Part shown: one piece after another, positions 2,504 to 19,210 of the stretch | Layout of the letters: each line of letters starts with the position of its first letter | How positions within the stretch are numbered: the stretch's first letter is position 1 | From: Escherichia phage SF | Sequence record: MH359124 | Length of the DNA stretch: 64,000 bases | Reading direction: 5' to 3' (one strand) | Made by a program: the position numbers and the translations under genes | The notes under the pieces: model-generated | Databases searched by the model: none | Seen by the model: only the letters and a program-made list of their open reading frames with translations | Told to the model about the DNA's origin: nothing

Positions 2504-3676
2504 ATGTCTGATTTAAAATCTCGTCTGATTAAAGCTTCTACTTCTAAAATGACCGCAGACTTGACTAAGTCTAAGTTGTTTAATAATCGCGATGAAGTCC
2601 CTACTCGTATTCCGATGTTGAATATTGCATTAGGTGGTGCACTGAATGCTGGGTTGCAATCAGGCTTAACTATTTTTGCTGCTCCTTCTAAACACTTTAA
2701 AACGTTGTTTGGACTGACCATGGTTGCAGCATATATGAAGAAATATAAAGATGCAATTTGTTTGTTCTATGATTCTGAATTTGGTGCTTCAGAATCTTAT
2801 TTTCGTTCAATGGGTGTTGATTTAGACCGTGTAGTTCATACTCCGATTCAATCTGTCGAACAACTTAAAGTTGATATGACTAATCAGCTTGATGCTATCG
2901 AACGCGGTGATAAAGTTATTATCTTTATCGATTCAATCGGTAATACTGCATCTAAGAAAGAAACTGAAGATGCATTGAACGAGAAAGTCGTAGGTGATAT
3001 GTCTCGTGCTAAGGCACTTAAATCTCTTTTCCGTATTGTGACTCCTTATCTGACTATTAAAGATATTCCGTGTGTTGCAATCAACCATACAGCAATGGAA
3101 ATTGGCGGATTGTATCCTAAAGAGATTATGGGTGGTGGTACAGGTATTCTTTATTCTGCCAACACGGTATTTTTTATCTCTAAACGTCAGGTTAAAGAAG
3201 GTACAGAATTGACCGGTTATGACTTCACGTTGAAAGCAGAAAAATCTCGTACGGTTAAAGAAAAATCTACTTTCCCAATCACGGTTAATTTCGATGGTGG
3301 TATTGACCCATTCAGTGGCTTGTTAGAAATGGCAACTGAAATTGGTTTTGTAGTTAAGCCTAAAGCTGGTTGGTATGCTCGTGAATTCCTTGACGAGGAA
3401 ACAGGCGAAATGATTCGTGAAGAGAAATCATGGCGTGCTAAAGCTACTGATTGTGTAGAATTCTGGGGACCGTTGTTTAAACACAAACCTTTCCGAGATG
3501 CAATTGAAACTAAATATAAGCTAGGTGCTATCTCTTCTATTAAAGAAGTTGATGACGCTGTTAACGACCTTATTAATTGCAAAGCAACAACTAAAGTTCC
3601 GGTTAAAACTTCTGATGCTCCGTCTGCAGCAGATATAGAAAACGACCTTGACGAAATGGAAGATTTCGATGAATAA
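2504..3676 (+). CDS. uvsX: UvsX RecA-like recombinase
   Basis: 390-aa ORF; N-terminus and RecA-fold motifs match T4 UvsX from memory; correct synteny. Confidence 0.95.
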   Translation: MSDLKSRLIKASTSKMTADLTKSKLFNNRDEVPTRIPMLNIALGGALNAGLQSGLTIFAAPSKHFKTLFGLTMVAAYMKKYKDAICLFYDSEFGASESYFRSMGVDLDRVVHTPIQSVEQLKVDMTNQLDAIERGDKVIIFIDSIGNTASKKETEDALNEKVVGDMSRAKALKSLFRIVTPYLTIKDIPCVAINHTAMEIGGLYPKEIMGGGTGILYSANTVFFISKRQVKEGTELTGYDFTLKAEKSRTVKEKSTFPITVNFDGGIDPFSGLLEMATEIGFVVKPKAGWYAREFLDEETGEMIREEKSWRAKATDCVEFWGPLFKHKPFRDAIETKYKLGAISSIKEVDDAVNDLINCKATTKVPVKTSDAPSAADIENDLDEMEDFDE

Positions 3677-4019: not shown

Positions 4020-5462
4020 GTGGTAGAAATTATTTTGTCTCATCTAGTATATGACCAGGCTTATTTTTCTAAGGTCTGGCCTTATATGGATTCTGAGTAT
4101 TTTGAGCGTGGACCGGCAAAAAACGTCTTTAAAATTATAAAGAGCCACGTTAACGAATATAATGCAATGCCATCTATCAATGCGTTAAAGGTGGCTTTAG
4201 ATAACAGTTCTTTAACTGAAGCCGAATACAAAGGAACTTCAGACCTAATTGAAAAATTGGCTGATACTCCTGAAGACCACGAATGGTTGGTTAAAGAAAC
4301 TGAGAAATATGTCCAGCAAAAAGCGATGTATAATGCTACATCAAAAATCATTGAGATTCAGTCTAATGCTGAACTACCTCCAGAACAACGTAACAAGAAA
4401 ATGCCTGACGTAGGAGCTATTCCTGATATTATGCGTCAAGCACTTTCAATTTCGTTTGATAGTTATGTTGGGCATGACTGGATGGAAGACTACGAAGCAC
4501 GCTGGCTTTCTTATCTGAACAAAGCACGTAAGGTCCCGTTCAAATTAAACATTCTGAATAAAATCACTAAAGGTGGTGCTGAAACTGGTACACTGAATGT
4601 TTTAATGGCTGGTGTTAATGTTGGTAAATCTTTAGGCCTTTGTTCACTTGCTGCAGATTATCTTCAAACAGGTCATAATGTTCTTTATATTTCCATGGAA
4701 ATGGCTGAAGAAGTTTGTGCTAAGCGTATAGATGCAAACATGCTTGACGTATCACTTGATGATATTGATGATGGTAACGTATCTTATGCCGAATATAAAG
4801 CCAAGATGGAAAAATGGCGTTCAAAAACAACATTAGGACGTTTAGTAGTTAAACAGTATCCTACTGGTGGAGCTAATGCTAATACATTCCGTGCATTGCT
4901 TAATGAGTTAAAACTTAAGAAGAACTTTGTGCCATCTGTAATCATGGTTGATTACTTAGGTATTTGCGGGTCTTGTCGTATCAGAGTTTACACTGAAAAT
5001 AGTTACACATTAGTTAAAGCTATCGCAGAAGAACTTCGTGCATTAGCAGTAGAATCTGAAACAGTTCTATGGACTGCAGCTCAAGTAGGACGTGCAGCAT
5101 GGGATGCTTCGGATATGAACATGAGCGATATTGCAGAATCGGCAGGTTTACCAGCAACGGCAGATTTCATGTTGGCCGTAATTGAAACCGAAGAACTTGC
5201 ACAAGCTGAACAACAACTTATCAAACAAATCAAATCACGATATGGTGATAAGAATAAGTGGAATAAATTCCTGATGGGTGTACGTAAAGGCAACCAGAAA
5301 TGGATTGAGATTGAGCAAGAAGGCATGAACACACCTAACACAGTAAATGAAAACGCAGGTGCTCAGATGCGTCAGGCAGAGGTGAATCGTACGGAACGCG
5401 TAGGTAAAGCCAAAGCAACACGTGCTGACCTAGATAGCTTAGCCAACGAGTTAAAATTTTAA
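4020..5462 (+). CDS. 41: gp41 replicative DNA helicase (DnaB-like)
   Basis: 480-aa ORF, GTG start after AAGGAG; N-terminus MVEIILSHL and Walker A GVNVGKS match T4 gp41. Confidence 0.95.
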   Translation: MVEIILSHLVYDQAYFSKVWPYMDSEYFERGPAKNVFKIIKSHVNEYNAMPSINALKVALDNSSLTEAEYKGTSDLIEKLADTPEDHEWLVKETEKYVQQKAMYNATSKIIEIQSNAELPPEQRNKKMPDVGAIPDIMRQALSISFDSYVGHDWMEDYEARWLSYLNKARKVPFKLNILNKITKGGAETGTLNVLMAGVNVGKSLGLCSLAADYLQTGHNVLYISMEMAEEVCAKRIDANMLDVSLDDIDDGNVSYAEYKAKMEKWRSKTTLGRLVVKQYPTGGANANTFRALLNELKLKKNFVPSVIMVDYLGICGSCRIRVYTENSYTLVKAIAEELRALAVESETVLWTAAQVGRAAWDASDMNMSDIAESAGLPATADFMLAVIETEELAQAEQQLIKQIKSRYGDKNKWNKFLMGVRKGNQKWIEIEQEGMNTPNTVNENAGAQMRQAEVNRTERVGKAKATRADLDSLANELKF

Positions 5463-5466
5463 TAAA

Positions 5467-5490
5467 AAGGAGACTTCGGTCTCCTTTCGG
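5467..5490 (+). terminator. Rho-independent terminator after gene 41
   Basis: AAGGAGAC-TTCG-GTCTCCTT (UUCG tetraloop) then TTTCGG. Confidence 0.6.
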
Positions 5491-5491
5491 G

Positions 5492-5521
5492 GTTTACATC
5501 TTCCTCTAGGCATGATATGAT
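5492..5521 (+). promoter_or_regulatory. Early sigma70-type promoter
   Basis: GTTTAC, 18-nt spacer, TATGAT; drives ORF 5551. Confidence 0.55.
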
Positions 5522-5550
5522 GTACTTACACAAACCAAGAGGAAAACATT

Positions 5551-5925
5551 ATGAATATGTCTCAAGCAATTTTTACTGCAATCACCGAAAACACAACTGT
5601 TGAAGTAGTTTCTCCGCTGGCAACCTACGTTATTCTTGCTCCTAAAACTATTGTATCTCGTATGGAAAACATGGGCAAACGTATCGTACAAATTGTTGGA
5701 GCTGGAAATCAAAAACTTGATTATCTGCGAACCATCAAAGCTTATGAACATTTCCAACTCGAAAAAGGTTCTCCTATCCAGGTAGAACTCGTAAATGGTG
5801 ATATCGTTCGAGCAATGTTCCATCATTTCTATGCATTGAATGACCCATCTAAAGCTGTTCGTTTAATTGCATACGACGCAAACCAAACCGAAATCAACGC
5901 AGATATATCTAAATTACATTTTTAA
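5551..5925 (+). CDS. Hypothetical protein
   Basis: 124-aa ORF with own early promoter and SD; no T4 counterpart recognised between 41 and dmd. Confidence 0.6.
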   Translation: MNMSQAIFTAITENTTVEVVSPLATYVILAPKTIVSRMENMGKRIVQIVGAGNQKLDYLRTIKAYEHFQLEKGSPIQVELVNGDIVRAMFHHFYALNDPSKAVRLIAYDANQTEINADISKLHF

Positions 5926-5954
5926 GTTTACTTCTCCAGTAGTTGTGTTATGAT
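5926..5954 (+). promoter_or_regulatory. Early promoter with stem-loop (PeSL-like)
   Basis: GTTTAC, 17 nt, TATGAT; -10 enclosed by IR CCAGTAGTTG/CAACTACTGG (5936..5972); drives ORF 5981. Confidence 0.65.
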
Positions 5955-5980
5955 AGACCTATCAACTACTGGAGAACAAA

Positions 5981-6298
5981 ATGAAAACCATCGACTGTAA
6001 AGCAGAATTTAAGATTTTTTATCACGGATCAAGTAGTTCAGCTAACATAGAAAATATGCTTTGTCCTCCTGAGGAAACAGGAGTTCTGTCTGAAACTGGA
6101 CGTAAGAAAAACTTGGATCGTGTATTCTTTACTGAAGATATCGGTTTAGCAAAGATTTATGCAGGACGAGCAGCACGCTCTTGTGGAGGTGAACCACGTC
6201 TCTATCGAGTAATTTCTCCGGTAGACGTAGTTCAAATGAATAATACTAAAGGTGCTACAGTTTATCACGCTGAATGGGCATTTTGCGAGGAAATATGA
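5981..6298 (+). CDS. Hypothetical protein, possible minimal ADP-ribosyltransferase (Arr-like) fold
   Basis: 105-aa ORF; N-terminal FYHGS motif and later hydrophobic Y-x-V-x-SP segment reminiscent of Arr-family; weak, unverified. Confidence 0.55.
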   Translation: MKTIDCKAEFKIFYHGSSSSANIENMLCPPEETGVLSETGRKKNLDRVFFTEDIGLAKIYAGRAARSCGGEPRLYRVISPVDVVQMNNTKGATVYHAEWAFCEEI

Positions 6299-6483
6299 GC
6301 AAATTAACTAAAGTTACTTTTATCGGTTGGTTTAAAAGCGGCGAGATGTTCACTAAAGATATCATGTTATCAGGTGATCGCGAAGAAATCGAGTGGGTTG
6401 CGGTACAACTTGCCGAAGTGAACAACGCATTAGTTAAAGCATTTGTTAATGACGAGAAAGTTTTCGAAGCAGATTTTCGATAA
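6295..6483 (+). CDS. dmd: Dmd, discriminator of mRNA degradation (antitoxin against RnlA/LsoA)
   Basis: ORF track 6274..6483; start at ATG 6295 gives 62 aa; VTFIGWFKSGEMFTKDIM...ALVKAF closely resembles T4 Dmd. Confidence 0.75.
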   Translation: MSKLTKVTFIGWFKSGEMFTKDIMLSGDREEIEWVAVQLAEVNNALVKAFVNDEKVFEADFR

Positions 6484-6496
6484 TTTTAAAATAACC

Positions 6497-6526
6497 GTTT
6501 ACAAGCACCACATACTGTGTTACTAT
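6497..6526 (+). promoter_or_regulatory. Early promoter
   Basis: GTTTAC, 18 nt, TACTAT; drives lipoprotein ORF 6555. Confidence 0.55.
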
Positions 6527-6554
6527 CTTTCTATCAACTACAGAGGAAATTGAA

Positions 6555-6923
6555 ATGAAAAAATTAATCGCTTTAGCAATGGTATTTGGATTAACCGGAT
6601 GTGGTGCCCATGGCTTTATCCCTAATAACGTTGGCCAACTGATTTACAATCCGAATGTTAAACAGTATGAACAACCTAAAGTTGAAGTGGAAGACCCGGT
6701 TACTGTAGGTAATCGAATGATTCAAGCTGATGCTCATGCTCAACGTTATCGTGATTCTGATACTGTGGCTGTGTCAAAAGAACAACGCGTTAAAGAACAT
6801 TGCTTACAGGCTACTGAAATCGCATTCATTCGCTATGTTGAAACAACTGGTAAAGAGCCTACCCAGAAACAAATCGCAAATAACTACGTCCAGTGTATTG
6901 AACGTTTAAACAAATTTAATTAA
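6555..6923 (+). CDS. Putative lipoprotein
   Basis: 122-aa ORF; signal peptide with lipobox LTGC; own early promoter. Confidence 0.65.
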   Translation: MKKLIALAMVFGLTGCGAHGFIPNNVGQLIYNPNVKQYEQPKVEVEDPVTVGNRMIQADAHAQRYRDSDTVAVSKEQRVKEHCLQATEIAFIRYVETTGKEPTQKQIANNYVQCIERLNKFN

Positions 6924-6984: not shown

Positions 6985-7233
6985 ATGGAATTATTCGTAG
7001 CTAGTTCAGTAGCGGTTTTAATCGCAGGTATTGGTTCAATCATCATTTACATGTTGCCTTGGGTAATCGCACTTATTCGTGGCACAAAAAGCACAACAGC
7101 AATCTTCTTTGTATCTTTACTCTTTAACTGGACGATGATTGGTTGGATTGGAACTTTAATTTGGTCTATCGTTGCCGAAAAGAAATCTGCCCAGCAGCCT
7201 CAACAAGTAATTATTATTCGCGAAAAAGAATAA
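6985..7233 (+). CDS. Small two-TM membrane protein
   Basis: 82-aa ORF, two hydrophobic helices; own promoter. Confidence 0.6.
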   Translation: MELFVASSVAVLIAGIGSIIIYMLPWVIALIRGTKSTTAIFFVSLLFNWTMIGWIGTLIWSIVAEKKSAQQPQQVIIIREKE

Positions 7234-7296: not shown

Positions 7297-7590
7297 ATGA
7301 AAAAGTTATCATTGGCAGCAATCTTACTTGCAGTATCATGTGCACCAGCTCCAGTTACGGCAGGTTATGATAAAGACCTCTGTGAGTGGTCAATGACTGC
7401 AAATCAAGAAGATGTTGAACAACAAATCTTCTCTGATATCATGAACATCACTAAACGAGACCGTCCTAATATGGTTAATAAAGTTGTTGAACAACTTAAG
7501 TCTGGCGGTATCATGCAGTACAATTATGTTTTGTATTGTGACCCTAATTTCGATAACAAAGATATCGTAACCGAAATCACAGGTGAATAA
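7297..7590 (+). CDS. sp: Spackle periplasmic protein (superinfection exclusion / lysozyme inhibitor)
   Basis: 97-aa ORF; signal peptide; GYDKDLCEWSMTA...SGG.MQYNYVLYCD matches T4 Sp. Confidence 0.8.
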   Translation: MKKLSLAAILLAVSCAPAPVTAGYDKDLCEWSMTANQEDVEQQIFSDIMNITKRDRPNMVNKVVEQLKSGGIMQYNYVLYCDPNFDNKDIVTEITGE

Positions 7591-7591
7591 T

Positions 7592-8242
7592 ATGATTTAT
7601 TATATGCACAAAAATGCGCCGTTTAAATATGGTAAATTTCCTAATGCACAATGTTATAATATAACGCCTAATGAAAATAATAACGGATATCATATTGGTG
7701 TAATTTTTGTAATTGTTAAAGATAACGAAATCGTTGCCTGGGCAGATTTTAAAGGTACAACGTATGATGTTAATCCTGTGCCTTTCACATATTACAATAT
7801 AATGGATTTGGCATATGATTATAATTGGTTTAATCATGACGCGTTGGCTCATATTGAAGGTGTAGGATTTGACATCTCTTATTCTAGATATTCATTATGT
7901 CCTATGAGCCGAGCTCACGGTAAAGATGCATCATATCTTTCATTTCGGAAACGTGTAAACTTCAAACGTAGTACAGAGTATGTCGGTGGACTCTTTGTTA
8001 AAGATAATAAAATAACCCGTATTAGTTATCCTTTAAGTGTAGGTCAAAAAGATGTTGATGTTGATTTAGACTTAACTGAAAATAACATTAATCGTATTGC
8101 TTCTGTATATTTTGATATCGATGAAAAAATTGTAGTGTGTGGATACGAATTACCACCTGAAGAAAAGGCTGAAGCAATTGAAGTTGAATTAGAAATTTCT
8201 GTTGATGACCAAATATTTAATGCATTTATGAATCGAGGTTAA
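7592..8242 (+). CDS. Hypothetical protein (61.2-like position)
   Basis: ORF track 7583..8242 (GTG); ATG at 7592 preceded by AGGTGA. Confidence 0.6.
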   Translation: MIYYMHKNAPFKYGKFPNAQCYNITPNENNNGYHIGVIFVIVKDNEIVAWADFKGTTYDVNPVPFTYYNIMDLAYDYNWFNHDALAHIEGVGFDISYSRYSLCPMSRAHGKDASYLSFRKRVNFKRSTEYVGGLFVKDNKITRISYPLSVGQKDVDVDLDLTENNINRIASVYFDIDEKIVVCGYELPPEEKAEAIEVELEISVDDQIFNAFMNRG

Positions 8243-8967: not shown

Positions 8968-9990
8968 ATGGCTGAATGGATAGATAATGAATTTGCTTAT
9001 CGTGCGTTTTCTCACCTACCTCGTTTTAGACAAATCAATAATTCAAGCACATTTAAATTAACATTTCGTTGTCCAGTTTGTGGCGACTCCCAGACCGATG
9101 CAATGAAAGCTCGCGGATGGTATTATGGCGGTACTCCTGGTAATGTACATTGTTATAATTGTCAATACCACAATACAATTTCCGGATACTTAAAAGAGTA
9201 TGATGAAGAGCTTTATCGCGAATACCTAATGGAAGTTCGTAAAGAAAAAGCTAGAATGGAACCAAAGATTGAAAAGGTTCCTGAACATAAACCAGAACCG
9301 GAGAAAAAGACTATAAATTCTTTGCCGTCTTGTTCTCGTCTGGACAAGCTGCCTGAAGAGCATCCTATTGTGAAATATGTTAAGTCTCGATGCATTCCTA
9401 AAGAATCATGGAACAGATTATGGTTCACATTAGAATGGCCTAAATTGGTCAACAAGATTCAACCTGGTACGTATAAGAAAGAGATTCCCGAACCACGTTT
9501 AGTGATTCCTATTTTTAATAAAGACGGGAAGGCTGAGTCATTCCAAGGACGTGCACTTCGTAAAGATGCTCCTCAGAAATATATCACTATTAAAGCGTTC
9601 GAGTCTGCAACAAAAATTTATGGTGTTGAACGTGTTAAGGAAGGAGACGTCTGGGTAATGGAAGGCCCTATTGATAGTTTATTCATACCCAATGCAATCG
9701 CTATTACAGGCGGCTCAATAGATTTAGATGTGGTACCATTTAAAGAACGTCGGGTATGGGTAATGGATAATGAACCTAGGCATCCAGATACTATAGCTCG
9801 CATGAAGCGATTAGTTGATGCAGGCGAACGTGTTATGTTCTGGGACCGAGCTCCATGGAGATCAAAGGATGTGAACGATATGGTAATGAAAGAAAATGCA
9901 ACACCACAAGAAATTTTAGAATATATGAAACAGAATATTTCAAGTGGGTTGCATGCTAAAATGAGATTATCTCGTTATTCTAAGATTTAA
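8968..9990 (+). CDS. 61: gp61 DNA primase
   Basis: 340-aa ORF; zinc-ribbon CPVCGDS..CYNC and Toprim region match T4 gp61. Confidence 0.95.
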   Translation: MAEWIDNEFAYRAFSHLPRFRQINNSSTFKLTFRCPVCGDSQTDAMKARGWYYGGTPGNVHCYNCQYHNTISGYLKEYDEELYREYLMEVRKEKARMEPKIEKVPEHKPEPEKKTINSLPSCSRLDKLPEEHPIVKYVKSRCIPKESWNRLWFTLEWPKLVNKIQPGTYKKEIPEPRLVIPIFNKDGKAESFQGRALRKDAPQKYITIKAFESATKIYGVERVKEGDVWVMEGPIDSLFIPNAIAITGGSIDLDVVPFKERRVWVMDNEPRHPDTIARMKRLVDAGERVMFWDRAPWRSKDVNDMVMKENATPQEILEYMKQNISSGLHAKMRLSRYSKI

Positions 9991-18685: not shown

Positions 18686-19210
18686 ATGTTAGTTTACCGC
18701 GTAGAACGTAGTTTTTGTACTCAACGTGAATCATTACCAGGAATTGCTATCGAAGACGGTAAAGCCGTCAGAATTTGGGAAACCTCTTGGAATAAAGAAC
18801 CTCGTTCGCCATACGGTTGGTCGGGCACCGACAACTCTGAAGAAACATGGGAGTTCCTTGATAAGCATGGAATACTCTCAGGTAACTTCTACCATCATGG
18901 CGACAACTACAATGTCTCTAATCGTCCTACAGTAAATGAAGACAAACTCCTTGAACAAAATATCTTAAGATACTATAGAATTGAGCACACATTTGAATTG
19001 AGTGAAGATTGGGCTCAAGGGTTCTATTTTGGATTTGAAAGTGTTGACGCGGTTTATGCATGGTTTGATGACCAGGTGGATGTTGAACTCTTGAAAGCTA
19101 AAGGATACTACATAGCGGTCTATGAAGCACCTGATTTCATCCTCGGAAGTTGTCAATTAATGTTTAGACGTTCATTGGCAGAACAAGTTGATTTTATTTT
19201 GCTAAAATGA
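18686..19210 (+). CDS. Hypothetical protein
   Basis: 174-aa ORF with own promoter and AGAGGAG SD. Confidence 0.6.
   Translation: MLVYRVERSFCTQRESLPGIAIEDGKAVRIWETSWNKEPRSPYGWSGTDNSEETWEFLDKHGILSGNFYHHGDNYNVSNRPTVNEDKLLEQNILRYYRIEHTFELSEDWAQGFYFGFESVDAVYAWFDDQVDVELLKAKGYYIAVYEAPDFILGSCQLMFRRSLAEQVDFILLK

Follow-up and report, generated by a model that had tools for sequence, protein, structure and literature searches.

A predicted short Arr-like ADP-ribosyltransferase encoded next to dmd in Escherichia phage SF

The window analyzed here is a stretch of 64,000 nucleotides from Escherichia phage SF (MH359124; one strand, 5' to 3'), and we focused on two small open reading frames (ORFs), ORF124 and ORF105, which lie in it between the helicase gene 41 and the antitoxin gene dmd (Table 1). 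The original prediction, made from the sequence alone, described them as two extra genes of 124 and 105 amino acids (aa) between neighbors of T4, and the gene order agrees with this: in T4, gene 41 is directly followed by dmd with a gap of 58 bp. Region 5400-6600 of the window shares 98% identity with many members of Mosigvirus (RB69-like T-even phages), e.g., HX01, ATK47, and JK45. ORF105 carries the FYHGS motif (residues 13-17) and the later RLYRVISP segment (residues 73-80) that had suggested a resemblance to Arr-type ADP-ribosyltransferases (ARTs). It belongs to a PHROG family without annotated function and is a homologue of RB69 orf040c, a link taken from the annotation note of JS98. The stop codon of ORF105 overlaps the start codon of dmd (ATGA, within ATATGA), and the dmd ribosome-binding site GAGGA is located inside the 3' end of ORF105. 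The window Dmd is a member of the Pfam Dmd family (PF17587; 70.2 bits with a gathering cut-off of 27; residues 4-62 on profile positions 3-59 of 60) and is 54% identical to T4 Dmd. NCBIfam gave zero matches for ORF105 or Dmd. Downstream, spackle, the 61.2 homologue, and other genes are placed between imm and the primase gene 61.

Table 1. Genes and predicted signals around ORF105 in the window (positions counted from the first nucleotide)
Feature	Position	Strand	Description
uvsX	2504-3676		
gene 40	3648-4010		
gene 41	4020-5462		helicase
9-bp hairpin	5466-5487	+	GGAGAC-UUCG-GUCUCC, just after the gene 41 stop; fold of 5460-5556; terminator- or stabilizer-like
early-type promoter-like site upstream of ORF124	5493-5521	+	TTTACA-17-TATGAT, TG-extended; 10 of 12 consensus matches; in the gap between gene 41 and ORF124
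ORF124	5551-5925	+	124 aa; phrog_10668; conserved protein, fold unassigned; ORF list and homologues
early-type promoter-like site upstream of ORF105	5927-5954	+	TTTACT-16-TATGAT, TG-extended; consensus scan
14-bp perfect hairpin	5932-5976	+	5932-5945 with 5963-5976; -22.1 kcal/mol; z -4.64; none of 200 shuffles reached this stability
ORF105	5981-6298	+	105 aa; predicted minimal Arr/Tpt1-like ADP-ribosyltransferase fold; phrog_2110
dmd	6295-6483	+	62 aa; antitoxin-like inhibitor of RnlA/LsoA; phrog_2102; Pfam Dmd, 1.9e-19
DUF5481 gene	6555-6923		
imm	6985-7233		
primase gene 61	8968-9990		

Structure prediction had been proposed as a check on the ART resemblance, and it returned an ART-like fold for ORF105. 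In the structure comparison, the predicted fold paired exclusively with structures of the ART superfamily, whose hallmark is a split beta-sheet core that binds NAD+. The RNA 2'-phosphotransferase Tpt1 ranked at the top (Z 8.4; the model aligned over 75 of the 179 residues of 9ld3), followed by Arr (7.3), the anti-CRISPR ART AcrIF11 (6.7), diphtheria toxin (6.1), PARP15 (5.4), DarT1 (4.8), and the RES toxin ParT (4.6), with further PARPs and RES toxins at lower Z than ParT. Among viral models, Foldseek matched ORF105 to a protein of 94 aa that is named 'Ms Rifampin ADP-ribosyl transferase' (E 1e-7).

The sequence relationship with Arr was seen with a broad profile. We aligned 40 close relatives of ORF105, which are 58-88% identical to the window protein and come from phages infecting several host genera (alignment A1). 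Searching 1.84 billion representatives with a profile returned 228 relatives, and the distant ones among them were added to make the broad alignment A2. The A2 profile matched solely Arr in the PDB, namely Arr-ms (2HW2/9IAF; E 8e-4) and Arr-2 (E 0.02), and showed no Tpt1 sequence match even at E 10. The Pfam Arr-ms family (PF12120) was matched by 17 of the 48 A2 members and by 33 of the 58 multidomain relatives, some of them above the gathering score. Because A2 matches Arr alone in the PDB and relatives of ORF105 reach the Pfam Arr-ms threshold, the ORF105 family is, at the sequence level, a divergent and shortened branch of the Arr-like ARTs, and the suggested Arr resemblance is borne out by these matches of the family. 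When A2 is paired with Arr-ms, ORF105 His15 aligns with Arr-ms His19, Glu38-x-Gly-Arg41 with Glu40-x-Gly-Arg43, Val-Phe49-Phe-Thr with Ile-Tyr49-Ile-Thr, and Ser-Pro80 with Glu-Pro77. His15-Gly16, which is invariant in both A1 and A2, aligns with Arr-ms His19-Gly20, so that the active-site histidine of the Arr His-Gly-Thr motif is present. A1 contains 24 invariant columns, including His15, Gly16, Ser37, Glu38, Arg41, Asn44, Phe49, Thr51, Asp53, Tyr60, Arg63, Gly69, Gly70, and Glu103. Synonymous changes in the ORF105 codons exceed non-synonymous changes (28:12 versus JS98 and 41:32 versus KP15).

The ORF105 protein was found by tblastn in 608 phage records, mostly at 60-99% identity, with hosts of the genera Escherichia, Klebsiella, Acinetobacter, Aeromonas, Enterobacter, Vibrio, and others. 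The two ORFs had been described as inserted. This description suits ORF124, which is confined to Mosigvirus and a few relatives, whereas ORF105 is spread over T4-like phages of Escherichia, Klebsiella, Acinetobacter, Aeromonas, and Vibrio. Given this wide spread, T4 may equally have lost ORF105. Outside the phages of the 608 records, the representative search placed the ART domain as a solo protein in 89 cases and within longer proteins at the C-terminus (33), internally (23), or at the N-terminus (6). The longer proteins are up to 3,924 aa and have portal, minor-tail, ART-PolyVal, LPD23, NUDIX, 2H/Acb1, GNAT, Toprim, and CHAP co-domains; one multidomain relative is on a phage contig, beside ribonucleotide reductase and thymidylate synthase genes. 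As predicted proteins, these multidomain relatives are of the 'polyvalent' type, which is delivered into a new host by phages and conjugative elements (PMC5512222). In RB43 (L060, ~2930-3249), the ART copy is seemingly frameshifted, with the MNTIHCR...FYHGS segment in a different frame from the rest, which would make it a pseudogene or a sequencing error.

Each of the two genes had also been assigned its own stem-loop early promoter, and this assignment holds in part. A promoter-like site is present upstream of both ORFs, both sites match the consensus of T4-type early (sigma-70) promoters, and they share GTTTAC. The promoter scan as a whole was not enriched over shuffles (7 sites versus 5.2 expected), so the predicted promoters are based on their position and the common GTTTAC, not on statistics. 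For the stem-loops, we rejected equal significance at the two promoters, because the ORF105 hairpin (14 bp, z -4.6) alone stands out. The equivalent stem at ORF124 pairs the sequence after the -35 element with the ORF124 ribosome-binding site and is weak (7 bp, z -0.6, not significant). In the ORF105 hairpin, the Shine-Dalgarno GGAG (5971-5974) is in the 3' arm and the -10 element (5949-5954) is in the loop. The ribosome-binding site of ORF105 is the most strongly paired one (probability 0.99, rank 1 of the 68 window ORFs with a recognizable site). Shorter equivalents exist in Dhakavirus and other genera, where a CTCC-type run just after the -35 element pairs with the GGAG site, and in locus L022 matched changes are found on both sides of the shorter hairpin pairing. 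The second rank among the 68 ORFs is taken by a 174-aa ORF at 18686-19210 (+; phrog_1106), with a pairing probability of 0.98.

The geometry of the promoter and the hairpin points to control of translation. In read-through RNA coming from upstream, the 14-bp hairpin would bury the ORF105 ribosome-binding site, while an RNA started ~7 nt past the -10 element would carry the 3' arm of the hairpin at its very 5' end and lack the 5' arm, leaving the site open. Since a start downstream of the 5' arm removes the hairpin, ORF105 is probably translated only from transcripts that start at its own early promoter. Such a logic of hairpin-gated translation is known for the T4 genes e, soc, and I-TevI. The 9-bp hairpin after gene 41 was not called in a simple terminator scan because of its short T-run; hairpins like it are conserved at the corresponding position in Dhakavirus and other T4-like loci.

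Putting somewhat more trust in it than doubt, we propose that ORF105 is an active, stand-alone, immediate-early NAD+-dependent ART on a conserved host target, that its translation is hairpin-gated, and that it has no obligatory partner, with Dmd being separate. As part of this proposal, and held with the same modest preference, the ORF124-ORF105-dmd segment is best explained as an immediate-early accessory cassette in the variable 41-61 (helicase-primase) stretch of Mosigvirus. The ORF105 core would consist of the Arr core strands and helix, without the C-terminal helical extension of Arr and without the RNA-binding lobe of Tpt1. Driven by its own early promoter of the sigma-70 type, the enzyme would appear as a brief pulse in the first minutes of infection and would move ADP-ribose from NAD+ onto a target that gamma-proteobacterial hosts have conserved. 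Its role would be in host takeover or counter-defence, the latter being a plausible role that the original prediction had suggested, and Dmd next door would perform its known, separate job. Arr modifies a rifamycin hydroxyl and Tpt1 an RNA phosphate, i.e., oxygen nucleophiles on non-protein acceptors. Because the nearest relatives are Arr and Tpt1 and no catalytic glutamate is fixed in the wider family, we lean weakly to a nucleic-acid end or a small molecule, rather than a protein side chain, as the possible acceptor of ORF105. Of this proposal, our comparisons directly show the fold, the family relationship, the conserved motifs, the distribution, the independence of ORF105 from Dmd, and the geometry of the hairpin and promoter, while catalysis, timing, and acceptor are inferences.

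Several observations weigh against an active enzyme with these properties. ORF105 itself scores 12.3 bits (E 0.2) with the Pfam Arr-ms profile, its sole Pfam match, which begins at FYHG and is below the cut-off of 25. PDB sequence searches with the single ORF105 sequence or with the narrow A1 profile gave no match, and Foldseek of the ORF105 model against the PDB gave none of significance, with ParT and PltA just at E ~5. The residues Tyr49 and Asp84 reportedly have roles in Arr-ms (Baysarowich et al. 2008, cited in PMC9503650). The Tyr49 position is Phe49 in ORF105 and is nearly invariant as such in the family, and Asp84 has no clear conserved equivalent: the alignment ends before Asp84, and position 88 of ORF105 is mostly Asp in the family and Asn in the window protein. 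Glu103, which we checked as the late-strand residue of the H-Y-[EDQ] type, is invariant in the 40 T4-like members alone; more distant family members have Val, Ile, Lys, or other residues at this position. With Phe for Tyr49, no clear Asp84, and Glu103 limited to the T4-like subfamily, the activity of ORF105 is not assured. Furthermore, loop 37-44 of the model, containing Ser37, Glu38, Arg41, and Asn44, is of low confidence, the pI of ~6 gives no hint of nucleic-acid binding, the promoters and the transcription start are consensus predictions, and our literature search found no experimental work on the ORF105 family.

The relation to Dmd can be read in another way. Iyer et al. (2022) described phages of Escherichia, Shigella, and Salmonella in which a 'p0068-family ART toxin' is paired with Dmd as its antitoxin (PMC9503650). 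ORF105-dmd, with the same gene arrangement and phage host range, is very probably this gene pair, although the identity of p0068 with the ORF105 family could not be confirmed. Following their proposal, ORF105 and Dmd would be a phage-borne type II toxin-antitoxin pair in which Dmd neutralizes the ART toxin, and the overlap of the ORF105 stop with the dmd start agrees with such a pair, as does the position of Dmd immediately downstream wherever both are present (10 of 10 loci). However, similar gene overlaps occur in other gene pairs of the examined T4-like loci, Dmd already has the defined targets RnlA and LsoA (PMC9503650, PMC11825919), and the distribution of the two genes differs. Scanning 62 dereplicated IMG/VR ART loci with the Dmd profile, we found a Dmd-like ORF within 3 kb of the ART in 10 loci and none in the other 52, including some with the ART at the same place after gene 41. 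The next gene in the Dmd-less loci encodes a membrane protein of 55-58 aa, a Cys-rich acidic peptide of 41-46 aa, a lipoprotein of 96 aa, or an unrelated protein of 80-260 aa. In KP15, Acj133, and Aes012, the genes that follow the ART match neither Dmd nor any other Pfam family. On the Dmd side, ~566 of the 797 Dmd-bearing records, at <60% identity to the window Dmd (Tequatrovirus-like), appear to be without the ART, for which the T4 41-dmd region is the only direct evidence. Clustering of 790 ORFs from the ART loci showed no gene family that accompanies the ART across its at least three genomic contexts. The ART and Dmd do not co-occur in the consistent manner of a toxin-antitoxin system and are apart far more often than together. 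With Dmd at 10 of the 62 loci, varied downstream genes, and a T4 Dmd without the ART, Dmd is not an obligate partner of ORF105, and nothing in our analysis ties the two functionally. We regard the toxin-antitoxin explanation as highly improbable; the two genes are most likely adjacent here because both lie in the variable 41-61 region. The assignment of the enzyme also differs, because the p0068 ART was put in the H-Y-[EDQ] clade (PMC9503650), while ORF105 is nearest to Arr and Tpt1 here.

The other alternatives concern what the ART fold does. A Tpt1/KptA-like RNA-end enzyme would act on RNA cleaved by host RNase toxins, either ADP-ribosylating its terminal phosphates or removing them, and would in this way complement Dmd and the RNA-repair genes of the phage. 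Tpt1 gave the top Z in the structure comparison, but ORF105 has neither the N-terminal RNA lobe nor the Arg-His-Arg-Arg tetrad of Tpt1/KptA (PDB 9LD3, 7KW9), and no sequence similarity to it is detectable; we consider this function unlikely. An Arr-like action on a small molecule, in which ORF105 would ADP-ribosylate a hydroxyl and inactivate an antibiotic-like or immune-signalling compound, draws on Arr being the sole sequence-detectable relative of solved structure and the sole matching Pfam family, and the idea was raised for phage Arr homologues by Iyer et al. (PMC9503650). Against it, the C-terminal third of Arr is missing. Arr (PF12120; PDB 2HW2, 9IAF, 9IBA) has ~143 aa, while ORF105 ends ~40 residues sooner, without the C-terminal helical part, and its Pfam alignment spans profile positions 1-67 of 99; the setting is also different, a resistance cassette for Arr and the early region of a lytic phage for ORF105. 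In addition, the domain recurs in injected multidomain effectors beside macromolecule-modifying domains, and no candidate ligand is known for a lytic coliphage, so that a small-molecule function seems rather doubtful to us. Finally, ORF105 could be a catalytically dead ART fold acting by binding, either as a sponge for NAD+ or ADP-ribose derivatives or as a decoy or inhibitor of host ART defence (DarT, CmdT). Many phage anti-defence proteins are small binders, the family has no universally conserved catalytic glutamate, and Phe stands in place of Arr Tyr49. However, Arr and Tpt1 work without a classical glutamate, and even very distant relatives retain the NAD+-site motifs His-Gly-Ser/Thr, Glu-x-Gly-Arg, and Phe-Phe-Thr with little or no variation, as would be expected of an enzyme; we consider a dead fold very unlikely.

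An active ART, as we favor it, can be compared with the ARTs already described in phages. AcrIF11 (PDB 6KYF), a phage anti-CRISPR ART, is unrelated to ORF105 in sequence and targets one defence complex, whereas ORF105 is highly conserved among phages that infect different host genera, which suggests that its target is more universal. Alt, ModA, and ModB of T4 are likewise phage ARTs, which act on host components at the onset of infection (PMC5512222, PMC9503650). They differ from ORF105 in belonging to the R-S-E clade and in being far larger, injected (Alt) or of another fold subclass, and unrelated in sequence. With these three enzymes, T4-like phages are the classic model of ADP-ribosylation in host takeover. 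If our proposal is true, ORF105 would be a fourth ART of the T4-like phages, structurally different and far smaller. It is absent from T4 and conserved at 60% identity or higher in hundreds of phages of the therapeutic type that infect Escherichia, Klebsiella, Acinetobacter, and Aeromonas. Identification of the acceptor would reveal what a minimal Arr-type core modifies and settle the idea of an ART toxin with a Dmd antitoxin.

The ART prediction itself is not new. The RefSeq orthologue of HX01 (YP_010247000.1) and several Acinetobacter phage records are already named 'ADP-ribosyl transferase', and the ART-Dmd arrangement was described previously (PMC9503650). As the prediction is public, the remaining value is experimental. 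Our analysis adds the placement of the family nearest to Arr and Tpt1, the distribution that speaks against obligate pairing with Dmd, the hairpin that probably gates ORF105 translation, and the link between ORF124 and the ART. A more extended speculation, to which we assign a low probability, is that ORF105 would be the smallest working ART known, a stand-alone Arr/Tpt1-clade core modifying RNA ends or a host immune small molecule, and not a protein, in the first minutes of infection, alongside Dmd shielding phage mRNA from host RNase toxins and with ORF124 as a lineage-specific helper. In this speculation, the enzyme would be a new and widely conserved arm of the takeover by T4-like phages.

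ORF124 was found in 131 Mosigvirus records at 95% identity or higher and in two or three divergent relatives. Its homologues at 97%, 53%, and 36% identity are all directly upstream of an ART gene; the 53% and 36% copies, from a metagenomic contig and a Salmonella Dhakavirus, are both directly upstream of the ART and Dmd. The conserved blocks are MNxSQAI..AITE, VILAP, GKxIxQIxG, and FHHxY. From these sequence comparisons, ORF124 is a real gene, centered on Mosigvirus and linked to the ART. JS98-type phages have the ART without ORF124, and ORF124 is therefore not required. Profile searches of Pfam, NCBIfam, and the PDB with ORF124 gave chance-level matches alone, a search of 5.8 billion proteins gave two clusters only, and hhalign showed no relation between ORF124 and the genes that precede the ART in KP15 and Acj133. 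An AF2 model of ORF124 from three sequences had a pLDDT of 36 and was not used because it was unusable.

Variations were also observed in the neighboring genes. Dhakavirus-type phages have two different Dmd-like genes of 64 aa and 67 aa (L005, 2819-3022; L008-L014, ~3319-3531; L068, 3254-3652), which in some genomes are in tandem after the ART, and one of them is annotated as 'translational repressor protein' in a Salmonella phage. In some Mosigviruses (AV112, HX01), dmd and the DUF5481 gene are separated by an additional ORF of 213 nt (L073, 1389-1601; L074, 2008-2220), which is not present at 6483-6555 of the window, indicating gene-by-gene turnover in the dmd-DUF5481 region. Further downstream, 7583-8242 (+) of the window encodes a homologue (66% identical) of T4 gp61.2, the anti-DarT factor AdfA. 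If its start is at MHKN, the homologue has Arg at the position equivalent to residue 164 of RB69 AdfA (ENNINRIASVY). An RB69-like AdfA allele with Arg at residue 164 was reported to be unable to neutralize DarT1 (PMC11825919).
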